From assembly GCA_965263355.1 (NCBI GenBank), contig CBDHHL010000056.1, positions 1,216,001 to 1,280,000 of the forward strand: 64,000 nucleotides of DNA, given 5' to 3'. Under the pieces are notes generated by a model. That model ran no database searches, was not told the origin of the DNA, and worked only from the letters and a program-made list of their open reading frames with translations. Of this stretch, positions 1 to 26,444 are shown piece after piece; positions within the stretch are counted from its first letter, which is position 1, and each line of letters starts with the position of its first letter. This DNA is from Leptolyngbyaceae cyanobacterium (GTDB lineage Bacteria > Cyanobacteriota > Cyanobacteriia > Phormidesmidales > Phormidesmidaceae). Position numbers and translations under genes: made by a program.

Positions 1-265
1 GCATGTAGAGCCACAGAGTTGGTTGCTCTGCCAGGGTCAACCCACCAGAGTCGTAATTCCTGGGAGCTAAAGCTTTCATCGGCCTACCGCTATCTTCCTC
101 TGGACAAGGCCCTCGGTGACCACCGCCATTGGGAGGAGGTGTCGTCGGTGGATAATGCTGATCAGGTAGGGAGGGCAATGCCTTACTAATTTGGACTGCT
201 GGAGGCGCAAGTAACAGCATGGCAAGGCTTGACCAGGTTACAAAAAGCTTCATAGACAGATGCAT
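1..265 (-). CDS. DUF928 domain protein, N-terminal part (runs off window start)
   Basis: Manual translation MHLSMKLFVTW...GGGHRGPC...ALAP...GLTLAEQPTLWLYM has a signal peptide and the DUF928 GGxRG-C / LTxxExPTxWxY pattern; lies directly downstream of a CHASE2 gene, the usual context. Confidence 0.8.
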   Translation of the reverse strand, partial: MHLSMKLFVTWSSLAMLLLAPPAVQISKALPSLPDQHYPPTTPPPNGGGHRGPCPEEDSGRPMKALAPRNYDSGGLTLAEQPTLWLYM

Positions 266-275
266 TGCATATCCC

Positions 276-2417
276 TCAAATCAGTTTTTTGATAGATTTT
301 GAATTCGTTGCGATCGCACTCATTCCACCTGCTCCTACTAGCGCTAAGACAAAAGGAACAGTGGGAAGCCACCATCCCTCCACAAATAGGATAAATGTCG
401 TTCCTAAGCAGGCCACGAGCGTTAATGAATAAATTAATAACTTGGCCTGTTTGTGAAGGCTGAGAATCACGATACTACTGCCATAAAGGGCGATGCTCAA
501 AATCAAGATGCCTTCGACTGATTGAGAGAGCGTTTGGAGGATGGGGCGATTGTCCAGCACCGCACTGATAAGCTGACTAGTCATGTGGGCATGGACAAAG
601 ACACCAGGAATTTCGACATTGAAAGGTGTTCGCCAGGAATCTAGTCTACGGATACCTTCAGGATCAAGGCTATCGATGCGGTCCACACCAACCAGCACAA
701 TGCGATCTCGGATATCGGTTGACTGAATATTTTTAGTTAGAACATCTTCCAGGGAAAAAGCAGATGCGATCGCTCTAGGTGTTCTTGTTGAACGATAGTT
801 GAGGAGAATTTGTCCTACATCAGTCTCAAGATTTTGATAACCACTGGTACGACGGGTCAAATTCTTCAATACCAGTTCATCAAATGCCAAATATCCCTCT
901 TCAGTAAATCGACCAGAGATATTGTCAGCTTCCAAATATTTACTGGCTAGCTGAAGACTCAACGCATAGGGGGTTTGGCAATCCCCTAATCCACCAAACC
1001 TTCCCAGGAGTAAATGGCGGCGAACTAATCTGTCCGTATCCGATAAAAAATTGGTAAATCCTACCCGTTCCATATCTGTATGTTTAAGCGGAGGGATTTC
1101 GTTTTCGCCTGCCTGACAAGCCGTAATCAGTTTCTCAGGTGATTGAAGCGTTTGGAGCATAGCTTCACTGTCTTCGGTCTCCATCCAATCTAGATAAATA
1201 TCTAATCCAATCGCTCTGGGCTGATAGGCACTGAGCGTATTAATCAGCTGTTCTAGGGCTCCGTCATAGGCGATTGACTGCTCCTCATTCCGACGCGAAA
1301 ATCCTTGTTTCTCTTGAAAGCGGAGGTCTGCATCGCTAATAGTTACCAAGACCAGTCTTTCATCTGGTGCTTCCAAAGGACGTAGCCTGAACAAAACATC
1401 ATAGGCACTGAGTTCTAATGGTTGTAAGGCACCGACAAAGCGTAAGCTTAGTAATACAGCAGATGTCAAAAGGCCACTTAAACCAGCAATGCGGAGTCGC
1501 TTTGATATCGGAATTGTGCTGGGTTGATAACAGTAATTGCTGATTCTCTGGAAAACGCTTAACTGTTCAGTTAGTGGCTTTTCCGACTGCTTAACCACTC
1601 GTTGAATTAGGGGTAACTGGTCGAGAATGACTTGCGTGTTCTGAGGACGTTGACTGGCAAAGGGAGCCATTAGCTCTTCAATAAAGGCCACTAACTCAGG
1701 TGGTAGCATTGAAGCAGAGTCTTGCCAAATAAGCTTGCCCAAGATGGAAGAAAATTCGGAAGGATTTTTCCCTGTTAATAAATAAACACAGGTACGTCCA
1801 AGTGCAAAGAAATCTGATTGGGCAACGGCCTGACCCTCCATTTGCTCCGTTGGAGTATAACCTTGGGATGCAATTCGAGTTCCAGTCAGATCGCCCAGAT
1901 GGTTTTGCAAATGGGTTGCCGCCGCCGCTTTGATACCACCGAAATCAATCAGCACTAAGGTGCCGTCTTCGTTCAACATAATGTTGGAGGGTTTGATATC
2001 ACGATGCAGAAAACCGTACTGATGCAAATAATGCAAAATCTGTGTGAGCTGTGTGAGCCAGGCCAAGGTTTTGAGGGGACTGACGGGTTGATAGTTCTGT
2101 GCCTTCATCCACTGGCTCAGCGTTACCCCTGGAATCTTTTCCATGACGTAGCCATGGATAGGATTGCTCTGATCATCTACATCACAGCAAAAGTAGCTAT
2201 TGTCATCCGCTTTGGGAATGCCAGGATGATCCAATTGGCTGAGAACTTGAGCTTCCCGCTGAAAAAGTTCAACGGCTTTGGGAAAGTCTTCTAACAGTAT
2301 TTTAAGCACCTTAGTTTGACCATTCACTAGAATTTCCCAGGTCTCACCAAAGCCGCCCTGACCTAACTGTCGGATCAGTTGGTATTGTCCATTGAGCTGT
2401 GATCCTGGTTTAAGCAT
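276..2417 (-). CDS. Ser/Thr protein kinase fused to a CHASE2 sensor domain
   Basis: LGQGGFG, HRDIKPSN, DFG kinase motifs; LELSAYD..LRP, IGLDIY, PGVFVHA CHASE2 motifs; three C-terminal TM helices. Confidence 0.92.
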   Translation of the reverse strand: MLKPGSQLNGQYQLIRQLGQGGFGETWEILVNGQTKVLKILLEDFPKAVELFQREAQVLSQLDHPGIPKADDNSYFCCDVDDQSNPIHGYVMEKIPGVTLSQWMKAQNYQPVSPLKTLAWLTQLTQILHYLHQYGFLHRDIKPSNIMLNEDGTLVLIDFGGIKAAAATHLQNHLGDLTGTRIASQGYTPTEQMEGQAVAQSDFFALGRTCVYLLTGKNPSEFSSILGKLIWQDSASMLPPELVAFIEELMAPFASQRPQNTQVILDQLPLIQRVVKQSEKPLTEQLSVFQRISNYCYQPSTIPISKRLRIAGLSGLLTSAVLLSLRFVGALQPLELSAYDVLFRLRPLEAPDERLVLVTISDADLRFQEKQGFSRRNEEQSIAYDGALEQLINTLSAYQPRAIGLDIYLDWMETEDSEAMLQTLQSPEKLITACQAGENEIPPLKHTDMERVGFTNFLSDTDRLVRRHLLLGRFGGLGDCQTPYALSLQLASKYLEADNISGRFTEEGYLAFDELVLKNLTRRTSGYQNLETDVGQILLNYRSTRTPRAIASAFSLEDVLTKNIQSTDIRDRIVLVGVDRIDSLDPEGIRRLDSWRTPFNVEIPGVFVHAHMTSQLISAVLDNRPILQTLSQSVEGILILSIALYGSSIVILSLHKQAKLLIYSLTLVACLGTTFILFVEGWWLPTVPFVLALVGAGGMSAIATNSKSIKKLI

Positions 2418-2495
2418 GGGAAAGTGTGGACAAAGAGAGAAAAAAAAGAAGGGGCGGTAGAGGGAGCAGAAGAAGACAGGTTAGATTCGAGTTGT

Positions 2496-3902
2496 TTATT
2501 TACTTGCATGGTATTTGACATACTTTTCAATAGTTGGTTGGAGCATAAATATTGTAGTATTCTCTCTCTTAGCATTTTCCAAGAGCGATCGCCTTCCCAG
2601 GGAATTAAGAACTGCCATCAACTCTGACCGGCGAATCTCAGATGTAATCCCCGTCAAAATTTCAGGCAAGGTTAATGGGTGGCCCTGATGTGCTAGACAA
2701 TTCATCACATCTTGCTCGATTTCCGAGAGGCGCTTGAATTGCTGATGTAGTAGATACTTAAAATCTCCCAAAAAGAGAGTGTTTTGATCCAGAAATTCAG
2801 CCACACTACCGCCAAATAGATCCTGAATAGTTGAGGCAATAATCCTCAGGGCTAGCGGATTACCGCCATAGGCCGTGACCAGTTCATGCCAACGATCTTC
2901 ATCCAATAACTGCTCATGGGTCAGAATTGCTTTGGCCTCATTACCCAGTCCCTCAACGCGATACGAACGAACTGGCATTGAAGGACCACTAATCCTGGAC
3001 GCCTCCCGCAGTTTTTCCCAACTGGTAAGGATGGTGCAGCTTTGGTGGGTTTCTTCCTCAATCCGCCGGAGTAGTTCGCCGTAACTTTCAAATCCTGCCT
3101 GATATTTACCCGATAATTCACCGATGCTGAGGATAGCCTGCACATCATCAAAGACCAGTAAGCAACGGTGTTCTTGAAGATAGCGAAGTAACTGAGAGAT
3201 GTAATCGGAAGGGGTTTGGAGGGACTGCCCCGCTGGTAGGTAGTTGAGGAAATCTAGAATATCCATCAGAAAGGGCTTCACTGCTGGCCGATTTCTCAAA
3301 GACCGCCAGATCAAGCACTCAAATTCATCTTTAATGGTGTGGGCCAGTTTTGCAGCTAGGGAAGTTTTACCGATGCCGCCTAAGCCGTAGAGTACAATGC
3401 TGCGGCATTTGTCAGTCAAGACCCATTGTTTGAGAAGGGTGATTTCGTGGGTGCGATCGTAAAAAATAGAGATGTCTGGTTGACTATCCCAACTTTCATG
3501 GGCTTTGAGTAATAGATTTGTCGAAACAACAGCTAGTGGTTGACGGTTTTCAATAACTTTAGCCTCTTCCTGAAAACGATACCCCGCTTGCTCCAGTAAA
3601 CGAGGGACCCAGCGCCAATTTTTTACCTGAGCCGTTTGATTAGCTTGTTCGATCAATTGGGTCTCTACTAAATTTTCAACATATCGATACACATGTCTAG
3701 AAAGGCATTGCCGCACAGTATCTGCACCTACGTGGCATTGCTCCGCAATTTTCCCTGGGCTGTAACCGCACAGCAATCCACGCAAATACTTTGCCTCAGT
3801 AGATGTCAGCTCATTGCCCTTAGCAACACCTAAATCTTTATAGAGCTGATCTAATCGCCAACTCTGAGCTGCTTTAGCAAAGTTTTCACAAGGATCTGAC
3901 AT
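2496..3902 (-). CDS. NB-ARC (STAND) ATPase with N-terminal HTH, no WD40 tail
   Basis: N-terminal LRGLLCGYSP..IA HTH; Walker A GLGGIGKT, Walker B LLVFDD, GNPLAL motif. Confidence 0.88.
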   Translation of the reverse strand: MSDPCENFAKAAQSWRLDQLYKDLGVAKGNELTSTEAKYLRGLLCGYSPGKIAEQCHVGADTVRQCLSRHVYRYVENLVETQLIEQANQTAQVKNWRWVPRLLEQAGYRFQEEAKVIENRQPLAVVSTNLLLKAHESWDSQPDISIFYDRTHEITLLKQWVLTDKCRSIVLYGLGGIGKTSLAAKLAHTIKDEFECLIWRSLRNRPAVKPFLMDILDFLNYLPAGQSLQTPSDYISQLLRYLQEHRCLLVFDDVQAILSIGELSGKYQAGFESYGELLRRIEEETHQSCTILTSWEKLREASRISGPSMPVRSYRVEGLGNEAKAILTHEQLLDEDRWHELVTAYGGNPLALRIIASTIQDLFGGSVAEFLDQNTLFLGDFKYLLHQQFKRLSEIEQDVMNCLAHQGHPLTLPEILTGITSEIRRSELMAVLNSLGRRSLLENAKRENTTIFMLQPTIEKYVKYHASK

Positions 3903-4083
3903 ACTTCAATCCATTACTAAGGCTCTCCGAAGTAATAGTAGTGTAGTCTTTATGGGCTTCCAACCCATGGCTACTCCATAAAAATCCTCCATGCTTACTC
4001 CATGGAATTTGCCGCAGTATGAGGCGACCTATCAATTGATTTTGAATATTCTGAGGTCAGGCTGATGAATTCATTTAAGGATC

Positions 4084-4608
4084 TTGGATATGAAAATCCC
4101 AAAATACTTTGATTTAGTTTCAGGTATAGTTTTTGTTGCATTAGTGGGGGCAAGTAAGCCTGCAAGCGCCCAAAATACTGACTACTTACGGGTTACATTT
4201 AATTCAATTGACGTGCATACACTTTTAGAGCCAGACCGTCCCGGTAAAAGGTCAGCCGAGCTTTATGCAAAGGTTAGATTCCCTCAGCATGATTGGCTTC
4301 GCTCAAGTCGTGAGAATGGGAATGCAATACGACCAGGCTGGAGATTTAGTCGAAATGTACAAGTTTCCAATCACCATTCAATTGATATTGAAGTATGGGA
4401 CCACGATAGAAGAGGAAGCGACGATAGAGGTCTTAATATCTCAGTTATCGACCTCAATATTTCAAACTGTTCCTATAGCACTGCTGTGAATGAATTGTCA
4501 GGCAAAGTTATTTATTATGGTCAACCCACCAACAATGGTGGTTGTTTGATCCGTGAACAATTTCGTGGAAGCCATGTGACAGCTGACGTCACTATTGAAG
4601 CCTATTAA
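4084..4608 (+). CDS. Secreted protein with C2-like beta domain
   Basis: Signal peptide ending ASA; ELYAKV and IEVWDHDRRGSDD resemble C2 Ca2+-loop motifs. Confidence 0.55.
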   Translation: MDMKIPKYFDLVSGIVFVALVGASKPASAQNTDYLRVTFNSIDVHTLLEPDRPGKRSAELYAKVRFPQHDWLRSSRENGNAIRPGWRFSRNVQVSNHHSIDIEVWDHDRRGSDDRGLNISVIDLNISNCSYSTAVNELSGKVIYYGQPTNNGGCLIREQFRGSHVTADVTIEAY

Positions 4609-5167
4609 GCTTATTGACATAGAAAATTTTTAGGAATGGCTCACTCATGTTTAGCATACAACAACTATGTGGCCATTTCCTGTGCTCAACCATAGTGTAA
4701 AATACAAACGATCAGTACATATTTGCAGGAAGTTTTTGAGAGTAACACAACAATTTACTTATAGTGACAATAAGTAAATATCTCTGAGACTAAGTTTCTG
4801 AACTCTCAAGCTGTATAACTATGCCAGACTAAGTAGTGGCCATTTGCAACACTCAAAAAAATGAGAATCGAGAGAAAGCATTGGCTTTTCATTTGCATAG
4901 AAGACTATGTATAGCCCAACAGCTACTAGGCAAAAAACACTGAAATTTATCGGAATAACCTGGAAGAAGAATATCTTTCCATTACAACTGAATATCGAGA
5001 TTTAAAGTCCTATGGATATAGGAGAATTCTCCATAATGATCCAAGGTTTTGTTTATCCAGTCGATAAGTGATAGCCACCAAAGTATCAAGTTGCCGTTGT
5101 CGACTCAAATCTCACAGCGTTCTAAATCAACAGAAAAATCAGCTTCTAAAAACATGGAGGACTTCTC

Positions 5168-5743
5168 GTGAAAATCAAAAATGTTCTGATGGGAGCATTA
5201 TTTAGCTCTCTCCTAGTTTGCCCACCAGCTTTAGCCAAATTCTATTTAGAGAATCAAACTAACACTTCTCTACAAATAGGGTTTGTCACCCTCAGAGGTG
5301 AGCAAATTCGTGGTGATGGATGGTATACGCTTCGACCAGGCGAAGATAGGACTATTGAGGGTAATGACTATCGTGAAAACAAGCGTTATTTCTTAGTTGT
5401 CAAAGATCAATCTTCTGGCAAATATCTACGATTTGGATATGGAAATTTATGTGGTGATCATTGTCTTGCTGAATACGCCGACTCAGATGTGTATATCCCA
5501 CGCAGAGATTTCGACATTGGTTTTAACAACTCATATGTTGCAAATCAATTAAGAAGTGGTTATTGGTCTGCTTTTCAGGAATATGTCTCTAATACAGTTC
5601 GATATTCCGGCGTTTATATTCAGCCCAGCATTAATTGTTACGACAGTAGCAAGCTTTATATCACGGGGATTAGTGGAAACACAGCGAGTCTTAATATGAG
5701 GGTTTGGGATCGTGCAAGTCGTATTTGGGCTTGTGGGAATTAG
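5168..5743 (+). CDS. Secreted DUF1036-like protein
   Basis: GGAGG RBS; signal peptide ending ALA; GWYTLRPGE motif. Confidence 0.65.
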   Translation: MKIKNVLMGALFSSLLVCPPALAKFYLENQTNTSLQIGFVTLRGEQIRGDGWYTLRPGEDRTIEGNDYRENKRYFLVVKDQSSGKYLRFGYGNLCGDHCLAEYADSDVYIPRRDFDIGFNNSYVANQLRSGYWSAFQEYVSNTVRYSGVYIQPSINCYDSSKLYITGISGNTASLNMRVWDRASRIWACGN

Positions 5744-5828
5744 GTGGATTTAGTCGTATTCCCTACTGAGTTTGGTTGAAGTTGGAAAGTGTATTGTTTT
5801 CTCAAAAAGCAATTAGGAGATTTTTGAA

Positions 5829-8327
5829 ATGACCAAGGTAGAAGCTTCCGGAATAAATCATATTGACAGCCTACTCTACTTGTCTAAATGGGGTGGCCCT
5901 AGAGGTGAAAGTGCATTAATTACTTACAGTTTTCAGAATAATCATGATGAAAGGTTTATTCCACTATCCGAAAGGCAAAGAACAAAAGTTAGAGAGGTTC
6001 TCAATGTTTGGGAAAAAGTGACAAACCTCTATTTTGTTGAAGATTTTACCGGACAAGGAGCTTTAATTATTAGAGGTGATGAAGGCTTTGGAGGAAGCGG
6101 TGGTTTTAATGGTCCTCATACTCGTGGACACGTACATTTGGGTGTTGATCTATTAGGGAATGGAGACTTCTCAGAAGGATCTACCGCTTATTGGGTTATC
6201 TTGCACGAAGTCGGTCACGTCTTAGGACTAAAACATCCAGGTAACTATAATGCTCCCTGTGACGGTCGAGTCACTGGAGAGTTATGTAATCCTGCCCCAT
6301 ATTTACCCTCCGATCAAGACAATCGTCGATACTCAATAATGTCATATGATGCTCATCCGACTGTAAGAGCCGAACCTTCTACACCCATGCTGTATGATAT
6401 TGCAGCTATTCAATATCTATATGGTGCAAAAGGTTTTGCAATTGGAAACAACAGATACTCTTGGAATCCAAATAAGGCATTTGTGAAAACCATCTGGGAT
6501 ACGGGAGGATATGACACTATTTCTGCTGGGAATCAAACCTTACCAGTCAAAATCAATTTAAATCCTGGAACTTTTAGTTCTATTGGTCCTCGCTCGGATG
6601 GAGCAGATATTTCAGCAGTCGATAATTTAGCTATTGCTTTCAACACTGTTGAATATCAAGTTTTGATTGAAAAGGCGGTGGGTGGCTCTAACGATGACGA
6701 AATTATTGGTAACAGTATCAATAATGAAATTCTGGGAGGTTTAGGTAATGACTTTGTTGATTCAAGCTTAGGAAATGATCGTGTGTATGGTGAAAACGGA
6801 GACGATATTCTTTTAGCTGGCGGTGGTAATGACTTTGTCAGAGGTGGAAATGGTAATGATCAACTTTTTGGTGAATATGATTTCCGTTTTACGGGTACTC
6901 CAGATCCTAATTTTGGTCATGACACCATTTATGGTGAAGATGGTAATGACTATATTGACGGTGGCCGAGGAAACGATACTCTTTGGGGTGGTGAACAGAA
7001 TGACACCATCAATGGTCGGGCCGAGAACGATGCTATCTATGGCGAAGGTGGACACGACACTATTTATGGTGAAGATGGCAATGACCTACTCTTCGGTGAA
7101 GAGGACTATAACGTTACTGGAGTGCCGAATCCGCACTTTGGTAATGACCTCATTCTAGGTGGTAATGGGGATGATTACATTGACGGTGGCCGAGGAAACG
7201 ATACTCTTTGGGGCGGTGAACAGAATGACACTATCAATGGTCGGGCCGAGAACGATATCATCTATGGCGAAGGTGGTCACGATACTATCTTTGGCGAAGA
7301 TGGAAATGACCTGCTCTTTGGTGAAGAAGATTATAACGTTACTGGAGTGCCAAATCCGCACTTTGGCAATGACCTCATCTTAGGTGGCAATGGAGATGAT
7401 TATATTGACGGTGGCCGAGGTGACGATACCCTTTGGGGCGGTGAGCAAAATGACACTATCTTTGGCCGGGCTGATAATGATGCCATTTATGGTGAAGATG
7501 GAAACGATACTCTCTTTGGTGAAGATGGAAACGACGTCATTGATGCTGGGAATGGCAATGATTTCGCTGATGGTGGCAATCACGATGACTTTATCGACGG
7601 AGGCGACGGCGACGACTCACTCTATGGAGCCTCAGGCAACGACACCATTCAGGGCTCGACAGGGTACGATCTCCTCAGAGGCGGAGATGGTAATGATCAG
7701 CTCGACGGTGGGTATGGTAATGACAACCTTGATGGTGAATCAGGAAACGATGAACTCCACGGTGGTGCAGATGATGACACAATTCAGGGTGGTCTAGGGC
7801 AAGATACTCTTGATGGTGAAGATGGCAATGACTATCTTCGAGGTGGACAAGACCATGATCGCCTAGATGGTGGCAACGACAGCGACAGATTGTATGGTGA
7901 CGAAGGGAATGATACGCTCTTTGGAGGCTCGGGAAATGACAAGCTCTTTGGCGGTATCGGCAATGACTTATTAGTCGGTGAAACCGGCAACGATATCTTA
8001 ATTGGTGGTGCAGGAGCTGATCAATTCAAATTCAATGCTCTAAATGAAGGCGTTGATCTCATTAAAGACTTCTCTGCAACCGATGGCGATCGCATCGTAC
8101 TATCTAGCAGTGGATTTGGCAGTGACCTATCCCTTGGAAAATTGAACACAGAGGACTTTATCTTGGGCACAGCTGCCAAACGAGAAAGCGATCGCCTCAT
8201 CTATGATTCGGCGACGGGTGTACTCTACTTCGATACTGATGGGACAGGGTCTCTGCAACAGACTCAAGTTGCTCAGTTCGCAAACCGACCCGATCTTAAC
8301 CCGTCTGACATTTGGATAGTTGCTTGA
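5829..8327 (+). CDS. M10 (serralysin-like) zinc metalloprotease with RTX Ca-binding repeats
   Basis: HEVGHVLGLKH zinc motif, SIMSY Met-turn, TIWDTGGYDT, many GGxGxD nonapeptides. Confidence 0.95.
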   Translation: MTKVEASGINHIDSLLYLSKWGGPRGESALITYSFQNNHDERFIPLSERQRTKVREVLNVWEKVTNLYFVEDFTGQGALIIRGDEGFGGSGGFNGPHTRGHVHLGVDLLGNGDFSEGSTAYWVILHEVGHVLGLKHPGNYNAPCDGRVTGELCNPAPYLPSDQDNRRYSIMSYDAHPTVRAEPSTPMLYDIAAIQYLYGAKGFAIGNNRYSWNPNKAFVKTIWDTGGYDTISAGNQTLPVKINLNPGTFSSIGPRSDGADISAVDNLAIAFNTVEYQVLIEKAVGGSNDDEIIGNSINNEILGGLGNDFVDSSLGNDRVYGENGDDILLAGGGNDFVRGGNGNDQLFGEYDFRFTGTPDPNFGHDTIYGEDGNDYIDGGRGNDTLWGGEQNDTINGRAENDAIYGEGGHDTIYGEDGNDLLFGEEDYNVTGVPNPHFGNDLILGGNGDDYIDGGRGNDTLWGGEQNDTINGRAENDIIYGEGGHDTIFGEDGNDLLFGEEDYNVTGVPNPHFGNDLILGGNGDDYIDGGRGDDTLWGGEQNDTIFGRADNDAIYGEDGNDTLFGEDGNDVIDAGNGNDFADGGNHDDFIDGGDGDDSLYGASGNDTIQGSTGYDLLRGGDGNDQLDGGYGNDNLDGESGNDELHGGADDDTIQGGLGQDTLDGEDGNDYLRGGQDHDRLDGGNDSDRLYGDEGNDTLFGGSGNDKLFGGIGNDLLVGETGNDILIGGAGADQFKFNALNEGVDLIKDFSATDGDRIVLSSSGFGSDLSLGKLNTEDFILGTAAKRESDRLIYDSATGVLYFDTDGTGSLQQTQVAQFANRPDLNPSDIWIVA
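6872..7530 (+). repeat. About three tandem 225-bp (75-aa) repeats within the RTX region
   Basis: GACGGTGGCCGAGG recurs at about 6957, 7182 and 7407. Confidence 0.9.
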
Positions 8328-8384
8328 CTTAGTAACGTATTAGATATGAAAGGCCCTGAAATCCTTCCTTAAGAACCCAAATAG

Positions 8385-8428
8385 GTTGAGGCGATCGCTT
8401 TCTGAGTCAATAGAACGATCGCCTCAAC
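8385..8428 (+). terminator. Stem-loop after protease gene (HIP1-containing stem)
   Basis: GTTGAGGCGATCG ... CGATCGCCTCAAC inverted repeat followed by TTT. Confidence 0.6.
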
Positions 8429-8504
8429 TTTAAGTGCGCTCGCTTATTATTAAGGACCTAATGTCTATATAGCTATACAAACTAGAACTTCAGCGAAGCT
8501 CTAG

Positions 8505-8977
8505 AGTCGCTATGCCGATAGAGCAGCTGAGTAATGCTCAGCTCATCTACCACTCGACGAATTCTTTATGAAAGGTTAGTACAAAAATAGGCCTACACGC
8601 ATTTCAGGAAGTTCTGAGTCAAAAAAATCTTAAAACCTTTGCTATACAATACTCGGCTCATCTACTACTCGACGATTTTTTCCCGAAAGATGGCCAAAAA
8701 ATTAGTACAAGAATGGCTCCATGTGGCTTTCAAATAGGTCTGAGTCGAAAAATGCTTAAAACCTCTGCTGTACATAGCGTTTAGCTTTGGAAAAAGCTAA
8801 ACGTCTCAGCCCCACTTGCTATGCTAACGGAGCAGCTAATTAACGGTCAGCTCATCTAGGTCTTGACAACAATTTGTACGAAAAATGCCGCGAAAAATTA
8901 GCACAAAAATCAGTACAATACTTTTTAGGTGTTACAAAAGCTTTGCCAGGCAATGAATTTAGCTTTTGAGTATTTCT
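8505..8977 (+). repeat. Island right-end region with symmetric core-like sites and TTAGTACA arm motifs; homologous to 57389-57734
   Basis: TAGAGCAGCTGA-GTAATGC-TCAGCTCATCTA (8519-8549), half site 8653-8664, CGGAGCAGCTAA-TTAACGG-TCAGCTCATCTA (8828-8858); TYAGYACA at 8576, 8702, 8898, 8910. Confidence 0.85.
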
Positions 8978-9019
8978 TTTGTAATCAGCCGGTCGTCCGT
9001 TCGAGTCGGAGCACCAGCT
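8978..9019 (+). mobile_element. att site: 3' fragment of tRNA-Thr(TGT)
   Basis: TTTGTAA TCAGC CGGTC GTCCG TTCGAGT CGGAG CACCAGCT = anticodon loop, T arm and acceptor 3' strand; 5' half absent. Confidence 0.9.
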
Positions 9020-9224
9020 TTTTAATGAAAACCTTTCGTGTTAAGGGTTTTAGCCTTCTACATTTTAGTTAAATCTAAAATTTTGGTGGTTATTTTTACT
9101 GATTTTTCGACATAAACTAAGCGCTAAAAGCCTTTGATGTCAATGGCTTTAGTGAAATCAGTACAGAAATTAGTACAGGTACAAATCTAACAAAAGGATT
9201 TAACCATTGTATTCAATAAAGATA

Positions 9225-9271
9225 AGCACGGTTTGACCGGCTGACTTTATATCAACCGGTCAAACCGTGCT
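9225..9271. repeat. 20-bp inverted repeat with 7-bp spacer built from the tRNA-Thr 3' anticodon-stem half
   Basis: AGCACGGTTTGACCGGCTGA-CTTTATA-TCAACCGGTCAAACCGTGCT; GACCGGCTGA is the reverse complement of TCAGCCGGTC in the att. Confidence 0.85.
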
Positions 9272-9440
9272 CTAATAAAGCTGATTTTGCCTTGCAAAGT
9301 AGTCAATGTTTAAAACCCTGTGAAGCAAGGACTTCATTCATCTTTGACTATAAGCAATACCTTCGGGAGACGGCATATCAGTGAGATCTCATTCCAAATC
9401 CGGTGCTGGCCCAAAAGAGCAGTTGAGTCAGTTTGCAAGT

Positions 9441-9533
9441 TAAGTAGGTGGCAAAAACTATTTAATATCCCGAAGATTACCAGATAAGCATCTTAGCGAT
9501 TCAGAGCCACATTTACTTATGGCCACCTACTTA
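9441..9533. mobile_element. MITE-like element (93 bp)
   Basis: 12-bp terminal inverted repeats TAAGTAGGTGGC / GCCACCTACTTA. Confidence 0.6.
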
Positions 9534-9624
9534 GCAACACCCTTCGCTGAAGTTTTGTCGCTTTTGCATGAGCACCGATAGTTCGTAATCTAAACGAACT
9601 TGCAATTTACCTGATATGTTCTTA

Positions 9625-9841
9625 GCTCGACTTTATCCAAACATGTGGGGTTAATGAGGAAAGCAGCAAGCACAATAGGTTTATCAGAACCAACTTGCTG
9701 CAAATGGAAATACTAAATCTGCTATCGCTATTCGCTCCCTTATTTCGTCCAAGTGTAAGTGACATGATTAAAATCCCTCGTGAGATTTTCAACACTTGGT
9801 CTGACTTGCTTTGCTATGCGGCTTAGTGGATAAAGTCGAGC
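9625..9841. mobile_element. MITE (217 bp) with probable TA target duplication
   Basis: Perfect TIR GCTCGACTTTATCCA / TGGATAAAGTCGAGC flanked by TA on both sides; no ORF. Confidence 0.7.
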
Positions 9842-9953
9842 TAAGGAGCTGTTAAGAAACTACTTCACGGTTTAAGCCTGACAGGCTTGTTAAGCAATGA
9901 TTTAAATGAACAAGGCCATGATTTTAATTTTTAACAAGCCCTAAGCCCCGGAC

Positions 9954-10406
9954 CTAGGATGCTTTAATCAGGACACTCTCTCCCTCAATCATGGCTTCAT
10001 AGGAGTCGAGGGGCCTGACGGCGGGACCCACCGTTGCGGTGCCGTCAGTGCCAAATTTTGAGCCATGACAGGCACAGGAGAATTCCTCTCCCTGCCAGTC
10101 AACGGTGCAGCCCTGGTGGGTGCATTTGGAGTTGAGGGCAATTACGCTGTCGGTATTGGCTGGATCGCGCACAACAATTACATCACCTGCAGTCAGGCCT
10201 TTTTTGGCTAAGAATCCCTTGGCATCTAAATCGGCCACGGTACCGACGGTCTCAAACCCATCTGGCACAGCGGCCACTGGAGCTGAATCTTCTGTAGCAG
10301 GCGCATCGGATACAGTGTCTTGAGAATTGCAGGCTGCGATCGCAACTGGTAAAGAACTTACCAACATACCTAAGCCGACAAAGTTAATAAACTCACGACG
10401 TTGCAT
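9954..10406 (-). CDS. Small Rieske 2Fe-2S protein, Tat-exported (PetC3-like)
   Basis: RREF Tat motif, AAC lipobox-like site, CTHQGC and CACHGS boxes. Confidence 0.9.
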   Translation of the reverse strand: MQRREFINFVGLGMLVSSLPVAIAACNSQDTVSDAPATEDSAPVAAVPDGFETVGTVADLDAKGFLAKKGLTAGDVIVVRDPANTDSVIALNSKCTHQGCTVDWQGEEFSCACHGSKFGTDGTATVGPAVRPLDSYEAMIEGESVLIKAS

Positions 10407-10557
10407 AGTCTTTCTTTCTCCTCTCTAGTTGTTATTGACCGTGTTGGCCAATTGAACTTTAATGCGATTGCTGATTTAGGGGATGAATCGGTCTGGAGCC
10501 ATTACTATTTGACGGTATCTCACAACTCCAGTCATCCCAAGGATCAGCAATGCCACG

Positions 10558-11670
10558 TTAACTACTACCCATAGCCTTAAGCCACTGGTTTTTGGTTTGA
10601 TCCAGCTGGGCTGGATTTAGGGGTAACAGCCCCACCTCGGTCATTACATTGGTCATTTCTGTCAGATAAAAGTTCACCACCGCTTTAGTCGGTGTAACTG
10701 ATGTGAGCCGTTTTTGATCCACATATAGAAACAGGGACTGCACCAACGGATAGGCGTTACTTCCTACTGTTTCTGAACTGGCGCTGATTCCGCTGATGGG
10801 TATGGCCTTAAAGGTTTGGGTAAAGCGTTCATGGATGGACCCATTAATAAAGGTCACACTATTGGTCCGGCTGCCAAGGCTTTGCACCATCGGTTCTGGA
10901 TAGTCATAAAATATGGTGCCAGCATTAAGCAATGCAGCTCCATTATCTGGAAACAGTTTTTGGGTTAACAACGCCACCGTAGACGAATTGGGGCCAATCA
11001 TGGCTCGTTCAATTGGGGCATTGGGCCAACTTGGATCCACCTCTGACCAGGTTTTAGCCGTGAGAATGGCTTTTAATTTTTCTAGGGTGACCCCGCGCAC
11101 AAAGTCATTTTGTTTGTTAACCACCAGCAGTAACGGATCTTTGCCAATGCTCATCTCTAAGGGTTGCAGCCCTTTTTCCTGGCAGGTCTTGACTTCGGCT
11201 GGCGTCATCGCCCGATTTACGGTGAGGAACGCCACGGTAGGATCCTGGCAAAATTGTTGAATGGCAGAACCCGCTTTTAGGGCATTGATATCTAGCACAC
11301 CACTGTAGCCTGCCTGAATCAAATGCTGATACATCTGTTCATTAAAGACCTGCATCGTTGGGGCGGTGACCATGGTTAAATTACCCTGGATGGCTAAGGG
11401 GGCATCCGCGGGTAACGTCACAGCTCCCTTAGTCATGGTCGAACTTTGCTGGAGACGACTGGCCGTCAGGCTTTCTAGGTTTGGATCAATCAGGGGCTCT
11501 ATCTCATTGACCGCTTGTCTGAATTGAGCGTAGGGATTGTTGGGATTGTCTTCAGACTGGGAGGCGGCAAGCTGCCCACAGCCAGTCACTAAACTAACCA
11601 ATAAAAGCGGACTAAGGTACTGCCAGCAAGATTTGAATAGGTTAGGCAAAACAAGATATGGCATGGGCAA
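10558..11670 (-). CDS. PstS-family periplasmic substrate-binding lipoprotein (divergent)
   Basis: VTGC lipobox; QFC, LLVVNKQNDF, TWSEVDPSWP, YPLVQSLFLYV motifs of PstS-like proteins. Confidence 0.8.
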   Translation of the reverse strand: MPMPYLVLPNLFKSCWQYLSPLLLVSLVTGCGQLAASQSEDNPNNPYAQFRQAVNEIEPLIDPNLESLTASRLQQSSTMTKGAVTLPADAPLAIQGNLTMVTAPTMQVFNEQMYQHLIQAGYSGVLDINALKAGSAIQQFCQDPTVAFLTVNRAMTPAEVKTCQEKGLQPLEMSIGKDPLLLVVNKQNDFVRGVTLEKLKAILTAKTWSEVDPSWPNAPIERAMIGPNSSTVALLTQKLFPDNGAALLNAGTIFYDYPEPMVQSLGSRTNSVTFINGSIHERFTQTFKAIPISGISASSETVGSNAYPLVQSLFLYVDQKRLTSVTPTKAVVNFYLTEMTNVMTEVGLLPLNPAQLDQTKNQWLKAMGSS

Positions 11671-12792
11671 CTAGTCCTGGTGGGCAACAGCCGACTGGGA
11701 TGTTGGCTCTTGGCGATCGGTTTTTACCTGCAAAATACCTTTAGCCAGCCGTCCCAAACTGTTTTCCTGGGTGGTATAAGCCACTAACTCTGATACCGCT
11801 TTAGGGGCTTCCGGATCAGACTTAGGGTTGAGAATATGGCTCAAGGCTGTTGCCATGATTTCAACCTGGCTGTAGCTTTGGCTCAGGGTCACCTGGGTCT
11901 GGCGCTGCCGATACTGCAGCCACAGCAGCCCCCCCAACAGTAGCAACAGAAACCAGCCATAGGTGAGGAAGCGGTAGATGCGAGTGTTGGCGAGGGCCAG
12001 TTGGTAACTGGATTCAAACTTACCAGCAATGGGCTCTGTGGATGGATCGAGGGGTTGCAGCAATTGTGTGGTGGTTTCTTCAATCAGGGGCTTGGCATTA
12101 AAAATGACGTTGGCATGGGATTGCACCAGTTGAAGGGGCAGCTCTGTTTCTGGAATTTCCAGGGTGTTTTGTAGTTGACTGAGGGTCCTCAGCTGGTTTT
12201 GCAGCTTGGTGGATAGGGTTTCGTCGGTGGTGGCAGTAAACAACAACAGGTTGCGAATTAGCTGATTGAGGGTGTTGTCTAAGGTGGCTAATTTACCAGC
12301 ATCCAGGGTTTCGGTTGGCTTCAGGGTACTGAGTTTTGCATCGATCTGATCGGTTAGGAAGGGAAGATAGCGCAGCGAGTTTTTCAATAGGGCATTTCGA
12401 CCTTTGAACACCTCACTTAGGTTTTCTTTTTGGTCCAGGGATGCCTGACGGCTTTCGAGAAAACTGCGAATTTCTTGTTGAGCGCTAGCGGTAACAAAAC
12501 CAGGAATGGTTTCTAGGGAGGCCAATACCTCTCCCTGATCCTCCAGGTTATTTACGATGGGATCATAATAGGCAAAAAGCTCATAGCGGGCCCGTAGAAC
12601 TTCTTGGGAGAAGTTGGCCTCTAGCTCACTGAGGCGTATGACCTCGTCCCGGTATTGCTGATACTGTTGAAAGGAAACCGGCAGGCCTCTATAAACGAGC
12701 AATGCGGAAATCAGGAGAATCAAGATTACAATCACAATCCCCAGTGCCCGCAACTGATACCGCAGTTTCTTAGAAAGACGAGACTCAACCAT
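11671..12792 (-). CDS. DAHL (double all-helical ligand-binding) membrane sensor without output domain
   Basis: TM, VLRARY..YDPI and FKGRNALLKNSLRYLP DAHL-like motifs, second TM, short tail; adjacent to cytochrome c peroxidase. Confidence 0.75.
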   Translation of the reverse strand: MVESRLSKKLRYQLRALGIVIVILILLISALLVYRGLPVSFQQYQQYRDEVIRLSELEANFSQEVLRARYELFAYYDPIVNNLEDQGEVLASLETIPGFVTASAQQEIRSFLESRQASLDQKENLSEVFKGRNALLKNSLRYLPFLTDQIDAKLSTLKPTETLDAGKLATLDNTLNQLIRNLLLFTATTDETLSTKLQNQLRTLSQLQNTLEIPETELPLQLVQSHANVIFNAKPLIEETTTQLLQPLDPSTEPIAGKFESSYQLALANTRIYRFLTYGWFLLLLLGGLLWLQYRQRQTQVTLSQSYSQVEIMATALSHILNPKSDPEAPKAVSELVAYTTQENSLGRLAKGILQVKTDRQEPTSQSAVAHQD

Positions 12793-12800
12793 AATCAGTG

Positions 12801-13862
12801 TTACTCCTGAATTTCACCCGTCAAGGACTGTAAAAACTGCATGATCAAGTCCACATCCTGTTGTGGAATATCCACCCCCAGCTGATACTTACCCATGAGC
12901 TTGATGGCCTGATCCAGGGTTTTGGGATTGCCATCGTGAAAATAGGGGGAGGTGAGGGTAATGTTACGCAGAGTTGGCACCTTGAACACATGCAAATCCA
13001 GGTCATTTTTGGTGACGTTATAGCGCCCCAGATCCTGTTTGGTGACAGGCGTTCCTCGGTCAGCAAAATAATCTCCAAAGATACCCAGGGTTTGGAACAT
13101 GTTGCCCCCCACCAGCATGCCCTGGTGGCAGCTGACACAGCCGTATTCTTTAAAGCGTTCGTAGCCCTGCTTGGCTTCATCTGAAATGGCATCCTTTTGC
13201 CCCCGCAGGTACTGGTCAAAGGGGGCATTGGGGGTGTAAAGGGAGCGCTGGAATGTTGCGATCGCATCACGAATATTTTCCGCCGTCAGTCCACCGTCAT
13301 AGGCCTGAGCAAAGCCGCTGCGATACATGTCTTCCTTACCAATCTTACGTACCACCTCCTGCCAGGTCATCCCCCCCATTTCTCCCACCTTTTCAATGGG
13401 GCCTTTGGCTTGCTCTTCCAGGCTTTTGGCACTCCCATCCCAGTTGAGTCGGTGCATAAAGCCGGTATTAAACACTGTTGGCGAATTCAGCCCTGTATTC
13501 CCCCCAGCCATGCCAATGGAAATAGCTTTCCGGTCAGTGCCTCCCTTATCCAATACATGGCAGGTGGCACAGGAAACCGTATTGTCAGCCGACATGCGAG
13601 GATCGTGAAATAGCAGATCGCCAAGCTGCACCCGAGCTGGATTGGGCTCCTCTTCCAAGGTTAACGGAATCGGCTGAATCGGCTCTGCCAACAGCACAGG
13701 TTCAGACGCCAATGCTGCTCCGGGAGTCTCCGCCGCTGGCTGCTGTTGCCAAAACCGGGTAACTCCCAGGGCCGTTAATACCGCCAAACAAAACAAAACA
13801 ACTAGCGCCGCTATCTTTCTAAATCGATTTGACTTCAGTTGAGAGACTATTCGAGAAATCAT
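12801..13862 (-). CDS. Di-heme cytochrome c peroxidase / MauG family
   Basis: Two CxxCH motifs (CATCH, CVSCH), NSPTVFN, WDG, FKVPTLRN, PYFHDG. Confidence 0.93.
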   Translation of the reverse strand: MISRIVSQLKSNRFRKIAALVVLFCLAVLTALGVTRFWQQQPAAETPGAALASEPVLLAEPIQPIPLTLEEEPNPARVQLGDLLFHDPRMSADNTVSCATCHVLDKGGTDRKAISIGMAGGNTGLNSPTVFNTGFMHRLNWDGSAKSLEEQAKGPIEKVGEMGGMTWQEVVRKIGKEDMYRSGFAQAYDGGLTAENIRDAIATFQRSLYTPNAPFDQYLRGQKDAISDEAKQGYERFKEYGCVSCHQGMLVGGNMFQTLGIFGDYFADRGTPVTKQDLGRYNVTKNDLDLHVFKVPTLRNITLTSPYFHDGNPKTLDQAIKLMGKYQLGVDIPQQDVDLIMQFLQSLTGEIQE

Positions 13863-13905
13863 TGGGAAAACGCTTGACTGAGTGCCTACAAGTTGACTCT
13901 AAATG

Positions 13906-16011
13906 CTAAACAGAACTGCCCACCGGGGCTTTATCGGTGACTAAATGCCATGTAGGCAACGTCTCCATAGCTTCGGTTGCAATCGAACCATGGGACGACA
14001 ACTGATGATGATCTTTTAAGCGTTCATAAATTGGCTGAGTAACAACAATCTGATTTGGCTGTGCTTGATCAGGTAGCTTCGTAGCCAACTGAATTGTATC
14101 CCCCCAAAGCTTGTAAACAAAGGGATCAGTCCCTATAACACCTGCCATAAAGGCCCCTGAATGCAGACCCATTTGAAGACTTAAAGAGACCTGATACCGA
14201 TCATTCGTCCTCTGCACGATCTCTAGCAGATTCTGAGCTACCCGCAACCCCCGCTCCTGATGGTCAAAATGAACATCTGACAGTCCACATATCGCCAGGT
14301 AAGTGCCATCGGTTGTACCTTGGGGCTCTAGCCCGGATTGTTTGGCCACCTGGTCAAACTCACTCACCAGAGCATTCAATGCAACGGCGATTGATTCTGA
14401 TGAGGATGTTAGTCCTAAAATCTTAGCTGACAGCACCGTTGCCTGTTGCACCATATCCACAATTGGCTCGTCCCCCTGCCGAAATCTGGAAACAACCGCT
14501 GCGGGTAAAATATTCTTCAACAAGCTGTCATTTTCCAAACGTTTCTGTTCTATCAGTCCTCCCTGATTTTCCAGAGTGTGGGCCAGCTCCTTAAAAGATT
14601 TTCCCAGTTGACTAAACTCGTCATCTCCCCCAATTGGAATATCGCCCACGGGTTTCCCTGCCTGTATCTTCTTACTCGCTTCGATCAGACGGCTAACAGG
14701 ACTGGCAAATGCCTGGGCGATAAACCCTGATAACAAAGCCACTGCCAGAACAATGATCACACCTGCTGTAGACATGTAAATCTGCATCATTGTAACCGGT
14801 CCCAAGGCCTCGGCCTTATCCATTTCCGCTAAAATAGCCCAGCGCAGTCCCTCTAGCTTCAATGGTGCATAGGCACTCAATACCTGTTTGCCCTGATAGT
14901 CCGGGATGATTTCCGTATCTGCTTCGCCCAACATGGCATTCTTGGTTGCGATCGTATCCACAGGCTGTAGCAAGACCGATGTGTTGAGGTTGTATACCAG
15001 GTCTACAGTCTCAGAAGAAAGGCCCACTTTCCTCAGGTTTTCTCGATAGGTATCCGCATCCTCCAGAAGCTCCCGCGATACTGACCGCATTAGAGTATCT
15101 TCGCCCACCACATAGACCTGGCCAGTCTCACCTAACCCTTCATCCTCCCAGGCCTGGGTGCCCACCAGGATGTCATTAATCCGGTCAGGAGGGAGCTGCA
15201 GCGCCACAATACCCACAATGTGAGGGCCGTTAAAAATAGGTGTGCCAAGGAAGGCTACTGGAGCCGCTTTCCTTGGTACATAGGGTTCAAAGTCTACCAC
15301 CTGAACAAAACCACGACCTGGATTGTTACGCACTGCCTCGACCACTTCAGCTAGACCGCTGCGTCGGTAGGGACCCCGGTCTAGACTTGTGGCATAGTCG
15401 GGATGTTTGCTAACGGAATAGACAATCTCACCACTGTCAAAGTTGATCAAATAGAGATCATCATAGCCGTATTTATCGATCAAATTTTGAAAAAAGGGAT
15501 GATAGGTATTGTGATGTTGCGCATAAGCACTATCACCTGTAGCACTGGTTGAGCTGTCCCCTTCATTTGCCCCGGCAAGAACATAGCTGTACTGCAAGTA
15601 CTGCCCTGCTTGAGTCAGAGGTCGATAGTTAGCAAGAATCTGCGGCCCATCCACGTTTTCGGCCAGGGCAGGCAGAAAGTCACGGGCATAGTAAGTCTCA
15701 ATACCCTCTATCCACTCATTGGGGATCACTTCATTTTGCAGCCCCCGATAGGCCGCATTAAATTCCACCATGGCCGACACCACAGTGCGATCCTCGCCCA
15801 AAACTTCTAGCTGATCCCGGAGTCTTTTTATATAGGCTTCTACCTGAGTGCCCTTCGACGCTCGGACACTGGTGAGATGATCAAAGACTTGAGCCTCAAA
15901 TTCTTGACGAAATCGTAGCCAGCTGAGAGTCCCACCAATCAGCAACGAACCCAGGCTAACCCCCACCAAAAGGGCTATCAGCTTAGACTTAACACGCAGC
16001 CTATTTAACAT
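13906..16011 (-). CDS. Cache/HAMP adenylate-guanylate cyclase-like protein with degenerate catalytic domain
   Basis: TM-Cache-TM-HAMP, LLKNILP, GLHSG, WGDT; catalytic Asp/Asn/Arg positions substituted. Confidence 0.85.
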   Translation of the reverse strand: MLNRLRVKSKLIALLVGVSLGSLLIGGTLSWLRFRQEFEAQVFDHLTSVRASKGTQVEAYIKRLRDQLEVLGEDRTVVSAMVEFNAAYRGLQNEVIPNEWIEGIETYYARDFLPALAENVDGPQILANYRPLTQAGQYLQYSYVLAGANEGDSSTSATGDSAYAQHHNTYHPFFQNLIDKYGYDDLYLINFDSGEIVYSVSKHPDYATSLDRGPYRRSGLAEVVEAVRNNPGRGFVQVVDFEPYVPRKAAPVAFLGTPIFNGPHIVGIVALQLPPDRINDILVGTQAWEDEGLGETGQVYVVGEDTLMRSVSRELLEDADTYRENLRKVGLSSETVDLVYNLNTSVLLQPVDTIATKNAMLGEADTEIIPDYQGKQVLSAYAPLKLEGLRWAILAEMDKAEALGPVTMMQIYMSTAGVIIVLAVALLSGFIAQAFASPVSRLIEASKKIQAGKPVGDIPIGGDDEFSQLGKSFKELAHTLENQGGLIEQKRLENDSLLKNILPAAVVSRFRQGDEPIVDMVQQATVLSAKILGLTSSSESIAVALNALVSEFDQVAKQSGLEPQGTTDGTYLAICGLSDVHFDHQERGLRVAQNLLEIVQRTNDRYQVSLSLQMGLHSGAFMAGVIGTDPFVYKLWGDTIQLATKLPDQAQPNQIVVTQPIYERLKDHHQLSSHGSIATEAMETLPTWHLVTDKAPVGSSV

Positions 16012-16575
16012 TCTGTATTACTTTCCGTTAACCATTCACGTTTCCCTAATGGCGTTAGATAGAAACGTTACCCAGCAGCATTGGTCCCTAAGTTATGACC
16101 AATAAAAAGTTACTACGATCTCTGAATAAGCTGCAAGCAAGCCCACACTTAACTCACTCGGCACAAGGAAAATTGCAATTTTTGTTTACACTTCTGTCTA
16201 CGATTCTCGTTTACAGAGAGTTCATGCAGCCTAGACAATTTAGTAAGATAAGTAAGAAAGGTGTTCAAATTCAGTATTCACTAATTTTCTTGAGGCTGCC
16301 TTGTATTTCAAGATACTGACAAAAGAGTTTAAGTATGAGCTATAAAGTGAACCCTGGAAATAGTTATCTAGAAAACATAGGCATTGCTTTTCACGCAGAT
16401 TGTTTGTATTCACTAGTCGTTGACAAGCTATAATGTGATTCTCCTTACTAAAGGCTGTTGTAATTAGCGCTAACAGAAAAATCAAGATTAAATATCTTAA
16501 CTAAGCGCTTAAGTGGCTTGAAAACCTGGCTTAGTGAGATTGCACACACTTCTTACCTTGTTGCCATGAAATAGT

Positions 16576-18240: not shown

Positions 18241-18307
18241 AATAGTGTGATATAGGTAACTATAGGCATATCAGTGAGCCGCTAGAATATTTGTGTGAGA
18301 TGTTGAC

Positions 18308-19861: not shown

Positions 19862-19865
19862 AAGG

Positions 19866-21122: not shown

Positions 21123-21241
21123 TCCCAAATATGTACCCAGTAATAAAGGCTTATAATCGATCTCCTTGAGATATCTCAGGCAACGAGAACATAGTTGACA
21201 TTTTGCGCCAATGGCCCCTTTGTAAAACAGAAAGAAAACAA

Positions 21242-22404: not shown

Positions 22405-22557
22405 ATCGTTGAAATAACCTTCTGCTAAAGATCTTTTTGTTGGCTTGACAATAGTTTTAGAACCTTTAGCACAAGGAAATCCAGGTTTCTCTCATGGATT
22501 TGATCCTCTTGCTCTCATTGTTCTTATGGTGCCCCAGGTAATGTCTGGAGATATAGC

Positions 22558-23280: not shown

Positions 23281-23337
23281 TTTGAAGGAACTTTTATATT
23301 TAGCTCATTTCTTGAAAACAAATTTTAATTACTCAAG

Positions 23338-25688: not shown

Positions 25689-25703
25689 CTGTAATCTACA
25701 GGT

Positions 25704-26441: not shown

Positions 26442-26444
26442 TCC

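Follow-up and report, generated by a model that had tools for sequence, protein, structure and literature searches.

The attP sites of lambda-type heterobivalent integrases combine a core with arm-type sites. Extra copies of core-type recognition sequences beside the crossover occur as single direct repeats in the integron attI site (DR1 and DR2) and as the third FRT repeat. For genomic islands, tandem accretion and cis-mobilisable elements (CIMEs) have been described, and the available portion of PMC5704250 defines a CIME as flanked by attachment (att) sites and devoid of integration and transfer genes. Some Dehalococcoides ssrA islands have been proposed as CIME-type, and 16 islands carry a serine integrase module, according to the accessible part of PMC3146451. 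The usual core layout is given as 7-bp inverted repeats around a 7-bp exchange region in the part of 10.1101/2023.11.06.565760 that was at hand. Here we describe a junction module in a 64-kb stretch of DNA from a Leptolyngbyaceae cyanobacterium (the window). The segment 8504-9295 is a complete attP-like junction, made of a P arm, the 3' 42 nt of tRNA-Thr(UGU) and a P' arm, and it lies in the gap between two islands. Its core and half-sites originate from the tRNA, the module is conserved and arranged in arrays in related genomes, and none of the arrays examined carries a recombinase gene. Judging from the sequence, the module is probably a junction in a tandem array of CIME-type islands at tRNA-Thr, and the palindromes in its arms would be accessory (or fossil) core-type sites of an integrase. 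This is a familiar kind of mobile-DNA scar; its unusual part is the conserved palindromes copied from the tRNA anticodon arm.

Structure of the junction module

Coordinates below are window positions, and features lie on the plus strand unless stated otherwise. L numbers denote related loci (n = 46) and G numbers related genomes (G001, Leptolyngbya sp. PCC 7375; G002, Adonisia).

The intact tRNA-Thr(UGU) of relatives reads GGTAGAGCAGCTGA-TTTGTAA-TCAGCCGGTC, within ...GGTAGAGCAGCTGATTTGTAATCAGCCGGTC...; the complete tRNA-Thr(tgt) of PCC 7375 (L005:392-464) is GCTGGTGTAGCTCAGTTGGTAGAGCAGCTGATTTGTAATCAGCCGGTCGTCCGTTCGAGTCGGATCACCAGCT. It follows that TAGAGCAGCTGA is the junction of D stem and anticodon stem, as a preliminary description of this DNA, made from the letters alone, had anticipated. 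The core of the module (8978-9019) comprises the 3' 42 nt of this tRNA. It extends from the anticodon loop as far as the discriminator base and has G in place of T at 9011, and the crossover must fall within it. Because of the window's own G at 9011, the exact 42-mer had no match in the genome contigs searched. The att at the module reads TTTCT-TTTGTAA-TCAGC (8973-8989), in which the left inverted repeat is missing. The full form GCTGA-TTTGTAA-TCAGC, which the preliminary description had placed here, stands instead at 31004-31020, with the remaining tRNA 3' half running through 31050. The pattern GCTGA-N7-TCAGC occurs 4 times in the window (0.09 expected).

Three tandem paralogous units (about 8504-8635, 8636-8817 and 8818-8977) with direct-repeat families D1-D5 make up the P arm (8504-8977), which we class as belonging to a type-1 att module. 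The arm aligns with 13 other P arms, and its units align to units at window 57.4 kb and in L004. The distal P palindrome (8519-8549) is TAGAGCAGCTGA-GTAATGC-TCAGCTCATCTA, complementary at 10/12 positions, and its left half equals tRNA-Thr positions 20-31. In unit 2 a right half-site stands alone (TCGGCTCATCTA, 8653-8664; direct repeats D1 and D3), its left half and spacer removed by a deletion. The core-proximal P palindrome (8828-8858), CGGAGCAGCTAA-TTAACGG-TCAGCTCATCTA, starts 151 nt 5' of the core and pairs at 7/12 positions. Of the 12-7-12 sites that had been reported left of the core, the palindrome at 8519 and the half site at 8653 are therefore as described, but the palindrome at 8828 has the left half CGGAGCAGCTAA and not TAGAGCAGCTGA.

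The octamer TYAGYACA is found in the P arm at 8576-8583, 8702-8709, 8898-8905 and 8910-8917, and in the P' arm at 9158-9165 and 9170-9177, exactly and on the plus strand at all six places named before. The window has 15 matches to it, against 8.06 expected over the whole 64 kb, and 6 of these fall inside 600 bp, all on the plus strand. The longer form WWATYAGYACA has 7 matches (0.73 expected in the window), five at the module and two at 57.46 and 57.65 kb. The P' arm (9020-9295) opens with the tRNA terminator hairpin (about 9028-9051), followed by the two arm-type repeats and a palindrome. It aligns with 15 others, 6 of which lie directly 3' of intact tRNA-Thr genes. The 20-7-20 palindrome with spacer CTTTATA, already recognised in the preliminary description, spans 9225-9271 and is 95% complementary. 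Its conserved heart (9233-9263), TTGACCGGCTGA-CTTTATA-TCAACCGGTCAA, consists of two inverted copies of tRNA positions 39-48, and its left arm contains GACCGGCTGA, the exact reverse complement of TCAGCCGGTC (8985-8994). The palindromes are thus tRNA-derived, as had been proposed, and are built from the two halves of the anticodon arm.

Conservation of arms, palindromes and spacers

The anatomy of the module was drawn from about 20 homologous copies, among which 21 P palindromes, 13 P' palindromes and 13 proximal palindromes were compared. P arms contain 1 to 3 tandem paralogous units of ~190 nt each. Every unit opens with a core-like palindrome, with one or two TYAGYACA 55-60 nt further on, and the last unit ends at the real core; one metagenome contig is without one P-arm unit (8572 joined to 8695). 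The putative arm-type direct repeats flank the core on both sides at fixed offsets. The last P-arm repeat starts 72 nt before the core (8/8 modules checked), the P' palindrome starts 54 nt past the last arm repeat (6/6 checked), and the proximal palindrome starts at -149 to -152 nt relative to the core in 11 of the 13 modules. In about 20 homologous modules TYAGYACA thus occupies, at set distances, the places that arm-type sites would take, in keeping with the preliminary description. The arms are nearly free of indels and keep constant spacing at 20-25% divergence among these copies.

Ten of the 21 P palindromes have the tRNA 12-mer (positions 20-31) as their left arm. The right arm, written as its complement, is TAGATGAGCTGA, and 18 of 21 copies retain the GC/TG mismatch that it makes at positions 5-6. 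In the P' palindrome the left arm is TTGACCGGCTGA in 10 of 13 copies, a sequence that combines the complement of tRNA positions 39-48 with 2 further nt, and the partner arm differs at position 9 (C/T) in 9 of 13. L002 and L003 no longer have the inner stem of the P' palindrome but keep its left-arm sequence. That the asymmetries are conserved, and that the left arm is kept where inner pairing is gone, argues for sequence-specific recognition rather than for selection of a hairpin. Every half-site, and both sides of the tRNA itself, fits TWGANSRGYTGA.

Spacers that vary as a code, as the preliminary description had proposed, were not observed. The proximal spacer is TTAACGG in 5 of 13 modules and lies within two changes of it in 12 of 13; the TTAACGG of 8828-8858 is common to window 57598-57604, L002, L004 and L046. 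Distal spacers are mostly GTAATGA-like, the P' spacer is CTTTNNN-like in 13/13, and no palindrome spacer equals the anticodon loop TTTGTAA. Outside tRNA positions 20-43 the likeness to the tRNA is weak, with 7/12 upstream in 8 of 13 (non-independent) copies and 6-9/30 downstream. A terminator scan passed the P' palindrome, on the minus strand only and with a T-rich tail, and passed no P palindrome; a separate hairpin with compensatory changes lies 3' of the tRNA end.

Arrays of the module in related genomes

Further copies of the ~0.7-kb module are present in Leptolyngbya sp. PCC 7375, Adonisia turfae and related metagenome-assembled genomes (MAGs), where they always share one strand and number up to 5 on a contig, following an intact tRNA-Thr. 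When 185,579 species representatives were scanned, the hairpin pattern GAGCAGCTRA-N7-TCAGCTCATCTA was found at only 5 loci. These belong to 4 genomes, every one cyanobacterial (PCC 7375, Adonisia turfae CCMR0081 and two MAGs). In a family sample of 150 genomes, arm homology was detected in 13, and most of the other 82 matching genomes carry the tRNA part only. Full P-core-P' junctions also occur in L001, L002, L003, L007 (twice), L011, L012, L015 and L046.

An intact tRNA-Thr(tgt) with the same P' arm 3' of the gene is present in L005, L006, L008, L012, L013 and L014. The preliminary description had looked to an intact tRNA-Thr(TGT) with an adjacent integrase; the tRNA thus exists at six loci of relatives, but no integrase adjoins the modules. 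In PCC 7375 the DNA directly 3' of tRNA-Thr is homologous to window 9020-9295 (terminator hairpin, arm repeats and palindrome), and ~7.7 kb past that gene lies a window-like P arm followed by a second copy of the tRNA 3' half. Core 17-mer sites number 2, 2, 5 and 2 in G001-G004, and reversed-pattern controls gave 0. In G003 the five core sites share a strand of a single contig, at intervals of 4.8-11.4 kb, and the first of them is the intact tRNA. One MAG (L009) has an empty tRNA-Thr site.

In the window the 17-mer TTGTAATCAGCCGGTCG is present at 8979 (A), 31010 (B) and 57736 (C), each time on the plus strand, and the tRNA-derived 3' repeats at 8978-9019, 31004-31050 and 57736-57752 are direct repeats as expected of att borders. 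A and C have homologous left flanks with palindrome units and arm repeats. Since A has the order P-core-P', it is what tandem integration at one tRNA gene leaves between neighbouring elements. By analogy with the relatives, we infer that the window's array is anchored at a tRNA-Thr gene left of the window.

Content and turnover of the islands

The islands are att-flanked, multi-gene blocks of 4.8-27 kb without integration or transfer genes. Their cargo is of conflict or accessory type and includes NB-ARC and AAA_35 ATPases, a kinase with CHASE2, WD40 giants, caspase-FGE fusions, MoxR/VWA/iSTAND sets, trypsin-like proteases, many Uma2 genes and copies of insertion sequences (IS). Window positions 1-8400 had no DNA match in PCC 7375 or Adonisia, and positions 9300-29299 share only dispersed repeats with these genomes. 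The same islands have different neighbours in different genomes. All island junctions seen in arrays are at the tRNA-derived 17-mer and not at a palindrome spacer, so the exact mapping of gene gains and losses to the spacers that had been envisaged is not what the arrays display.

Pairs of loci with shared cargo gave a mixed picture of where identity changes. For a shared left island (L015/L012b), identity falls at the tRNA part. For a shared right island, identity climbs at the P' palindrome: L001 and L011a are 58-86% identical in the arm and 94-100% in the cargo, and L003/L014t are similar. L002 and L006t have the arm in common (93%) and diverge inside the P' palindrome spacer. Breakpoints at the P' palindrome fit recombination there or, equally, gene conversion ending with the homology, and are not decisive.

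Four sequencing runs were also compared, all as Logan contigs, in which circles and rare joints do not show. In run X1 a contig joins 4227 to 8323, and that strain seems to be without the DUF1036-like and RTX protease genes (4228-8322); this is a weak observation, as the joint has 24 letters on its shorter side.

Search for a recombinase

Neither PF00589 nor PF00239 had a match in the scanned open reading frames (ORFs) of the window (>=100 aa). In nine module-bearing genomes PF00589 had no match on module contigs, save two multi-megabase scaffolds, where the match closest to a module is the XerC-like gene discussed below, and PF00239 had none in the arrays of five genomes (G001-G004 and G082).

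A tyrosine integrase specific for the same tRNA belongs to a second att type, which is represented in the window by B (30912-31050), with three GGGTGTAA repeats (30912, 30939 and 30950) followed by the tRNA 3' half. The type-2 right flank (31180-31293) has GGGGTAAA repeats (31180 and 31193) and then the first 19 codons of the tRNA-Thr-specific integrase before a break; the remnant matches at 89% over 19 aa (E 4e-4, tblastn with the intact L010 integrase). Fused 3' of these codons is an unrelated relaxase fragment (31253-31714) with a weak TraI_2B match, a remnant of a conjugative or mobilisable element. A flank as at B, with the integrase gene intact, is found in L010 (389 aa, L010:8101-9270, G082), right behind tRNA-Thr and with three GGGGTAAA repeats between. 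Homologs of this integrase exist in 117 of the 150 family genomes. Among those of >=57% identity, 11 of 15 fetched loci adjoin tRNA-Thr(tgt), the other four being short or cut contigs; more distant homologs adjoin tRNA-Thr(cgt), Arg, Phe, Gly and Cys. The type-2 integrase is decayed in the window, G001 and G002. When it was used as a tblastn query, remnants were found in type-2 flanks only and none adjoined type-1 arms, and the tRNA-to-int arm of 11 type-2 loci had no half-site palindromes.

Several other candidates were rejected. The XerC-like 351-aa recombinase at L004:3680-4735, 4 kb beyond the Adonisia array, belongs to a multi-copy family and adjoins a truncated sulfate permease gene, and is therefore not tied to the module. 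ORFs 10558-13862 are not a three-recombinase (recombinase-in-trio, RIT) element; they are PBP_like_2, DAHL and MauG. A conserved stretch past the P' palindrome in L003 and L014, considered as an integrase end, is the C-terminus of a GNAT-like gene that is also present in G008. The Uma2-like 265-aa gene next to C (see below) was ruled out as a mobilising enzyme, being intact in 2 of the 4 loci that have one and absent beside most modules. As a separate observation, PCC 7375 has three adjacent tyrosine recombinase genes (open frames of 402, 393 and 330 aa) in RIT layout at C3:213390-216398, and G002 and G038 have similar ones.

Other features of the window

The homologous type-1 P arm at C (57390-57752) has arm repeats at 57463 and 57655, and its core (57736-57752) ends abruptly after TCAGCCGGTCG. 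It starts with a perfect 16-7-16 palindrome (57390-57428), and its proximal palindrome (57586-57616) has the spacer TTAACGG. The Uma2-like 265-aa gene (56555-57352; Pfam PF05685, E 8e-9) abuts the type-1 P arm in several modules and genomes. It is 97% identical to L005:7170-7964 and is frameshifted in L007, and in L004 only a C-terminal piece of it survives. Immediately to the left of att sites B and C (26999-30725 and 54029-57352) are six ORFs of the Uma2 family (PF05685).

The module sits within a 1.6-kb non-coding gap between an ORF for an RTX/M10-type protease on the left (5829-8327) and a Rieske-domain ORF on the right (9954-10406, minus strand). It is bracketed by a perfect 13-nt inverted repeat (8486-8498 / 9542-9554; 2 matches, 0.05 expected), which is present in none of the 46 related loci. 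A 225-bp element (9621-9845) has perfect 19-nt terminal inverted repeats, CTTAGCTCGACTTTATCCA and TGGATAAAGTCGAGCTAAG. Parts of 9441-9946 have numerous short matches in PCC 7375, Adonisia and two Acaryochloris plasmids, and on account of these dispersed matches the element looks like a repeat of the MITE (miniature inverted-repeat transposable element) type inserted beside the module. BLAST against plasmids gave just 2 short Acaryochloris matches, to the unrelated repeat 9765-9853. A repeat of ~92 bp between the Rieske and PBP-like genes (10463-10555) is found in many copies in PCC 7375 and Adonisia, at 83-90% identity. Further right, a 1.7-kb stretch (16570-18244) holding ORFs 16900-17418 and 17400-18227, which have no Pfam match, has at least 15 counterparts of 89-92% identity in the PCC 7375 genome and is probably an insertion sequence of undescribed type. 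The cyanobacteria-typical GCGATCGC motifs are present in the window DNA.

Discussion

We picture the array as the result of repeated site-specific integration into the segment of tRNA-Thr(UGU) that runs from the anticodon loop to the 3' end. Each island would keep a P' arm at its left end and a P arm at its right end and would have no recombinase of its own; with the att sites kept and the integrase lost, the islands are of the CIME type. The TYAGYACA repeats would be arm-type sites of a missing lambda-like heterobivalent integrase. The palindromes would be paired core-type half-sites, with TAGAGCAGCTGA plus its inverted copy standing for the left side of the tRNA core, and TCAGCCGGTC plus its own inverted copy for the right side. 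Their most likely role would be to load extra integrase dimers that build or regulate the recombination complex; alternatively, they may be former cores left by tandem duplication of a 'core plus arm' unit. Binding of a protein to these sites, and any present-day activity of the module, are inferred.

Several results weigh against accessory integrase sites in a CIME-type array. No cognate integrase adjoins the att or was found anywhere among the data searched, and a further complete module on one metagenome contig is likewise an integrase-less orphan. The paired arm motif was found 24 times in five genomes, 22 times on array contigs and twice elsewhere with a single mismatch (controls, 0); since it is almost confined to the arrays, those five genomes contain no second, integrase-linked att copy. 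Viral contigs scanned with two module patterns had 0 matches. Conservation extends over the whole arm without singling out the palindromes, and the modules may be fossils that are no longer active. ARAGORN reported 0 tRNA genes across the 64-kb window, which leaves the anchoring of the array at tRNA-Thr to analogy, and Rfam, at E up to 10 over 7500-10500, had no tRNA, only chance-level miRNA and snoRNA matches to the big palindrome. The site is thus not recognised as a tRNA gene or pseudogene cloverleaf by either program. Finally, a limited library of literature held no att arm with this layout and no precedent for core-type palindromes inside att arms.

If the palindromes were neutral fossils, they would be decayed pseudo-tRNA pieces or duplication scars and the arrays would be frozen. 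The absence of a recombinase in 9 genomes, the decay of the neighbouring type-2 integrase, the truncated core C and the frameshifted or truncated state of the Uma2-like end gene in 2 of 4 loci all suit this explanation, and the 12 nt upstream of the proximal palindrome, matching the tRNA D arm at 7/12 in 8 of 13 copies, give a weak hint of tRNA descent. We nevertheless regard it as unlikely, because spacing is constant with very few indels over ~20 copies that differ by 20-25%, the asymmetries of the arms are conserved, no tRNA likeness continues downstream of the palindrome (6-9/30), and island content differs between close relatives. That the palindromes are ordinary terminators or structural hairpins insulating the tRNA and island genes appears very improbable. 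The P' palindrome is indeed terminator-like on the minus strand, with its T-rich tail, and the separate hairpin after the tRNA 3' end has compensatory changes; but no P palindrome passes the scan, the 2-nt stem mismatch is fixed in 18 of 21, L002 and L003 retain the P' left-arm sequence without the inner stem, and the 12/12 and 10/10 identity to two tRNA half-sites would be left unexplained.

The model of the preliminary description, in which the palindromes are working extra cores whose spacers code the choice of partner, for integron-like capture or shuffling or as decoys, seems to us quite unlikely. It accounts for a P arm that is a periodic series of core-like sites with 1-3 units, one unit being absent from a metagenome contig; matched spacer pairs do exist (TTAACGG in 6 of 21 palindromes); and identity switches at the P' palindrome in two pairs with shared cargo (L001/L011a and L003/L014t), with L002 and L006t diverging inside the spacer. 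Such breakpoints are also expected, however, from ectopic gene conversion between module copies, since their homology ends there, and L015 and L012b switch at the tRNA part. The array junctions all lie at the tRNA core, and the spacers found at corresponding positions are versions inherited from a single sequence, none of them the anticodon loop. The arrays contain no integrase, hence no IntI with attI at the array head, and the islands are multi-gene blocks of 4.8-27 kb joined by 0.7-kb tRNA-derived modules, not short, mostly single-gene attC cassettes. Cassette capture of the integron kind is accordingly not supported. We give as little credence to the modules being live, integrase-agnostic platforms, served in trans by any integrase that recognises tRNA-Thr, for instance type-2, without matching arm sites. 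Such an enzyme would load on the palindromised copies of both tRNA-Thr core halves that the arms carry. Conflict- and defence-rich islands of 5-27 kb would then be excised, reshuffled or carried, and the locus would in effect be an integron-like store, anchored at a tRNA and holding very large cassettes.

Should the palindromes function as integrase sites, these would be att arms built from the target's own half-sites. This would explain how recombinase-less islands stay mobile, would bear on the storage and exchange of defence-type gene blocks in large filamentous cyanobacterial genomes, and would provide compact, self-contained att modules for tests of integrase specificity. If they are fossils, the locus is an ordinary island hotspot with an unusually detailed record.

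Comparison with known systems

Like a lambda-type attP in tRNA genes, the module has an identity segment from the anticodon loop to the 3' end, inverted half-sites around a 7-nt loop, and arm repeats on both sides. It departs from such sites in the extra half-site palindromes in both arms, in a P arm made of tandem 'palindrome plus arm site' units, and in having no adjoining int gene. The extra recognition copies also differ from the attI repeats DR1 and DR2 and from the third FRT repeat, as those of the module form complete palindromes around 7-nt spacers and lie 150-460 nt away from the core. The type-2 integrase family of tRNA-Thr(UGU) has the same target tRNA and core and shares arrays with type-1 modules (window 31.0 kb, L004 and L005). 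It is set apart by its arm repeats, which are GGGGTAAA/GGGTGTAA and not TYAGYACA, and by an identity segment that starts at GCTGA, 5 nt further left. The closest likeness in organisation, as far as the available portions of PMC5704250 and PMC3146451 describe them, is to ICESt1/CIME of Streptococcus thermophilus and to the Dehalococcoides ssrA islands. These too have same-strand repeats of the 3' end of the target RNA at each island border, integrase-less islands that keep their att sites, and strain-specific content. Unlike in those systems, all islands in the 9 genomes studied here are without a recombinase, and their junctions take the form of well conserved modules of considerable length (about 0.7 kb). 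At the level of sequence, the palindromised core half-sites in both arms, together with a P arm of tandem units, are what is distinctive about this cyanobacterial module.

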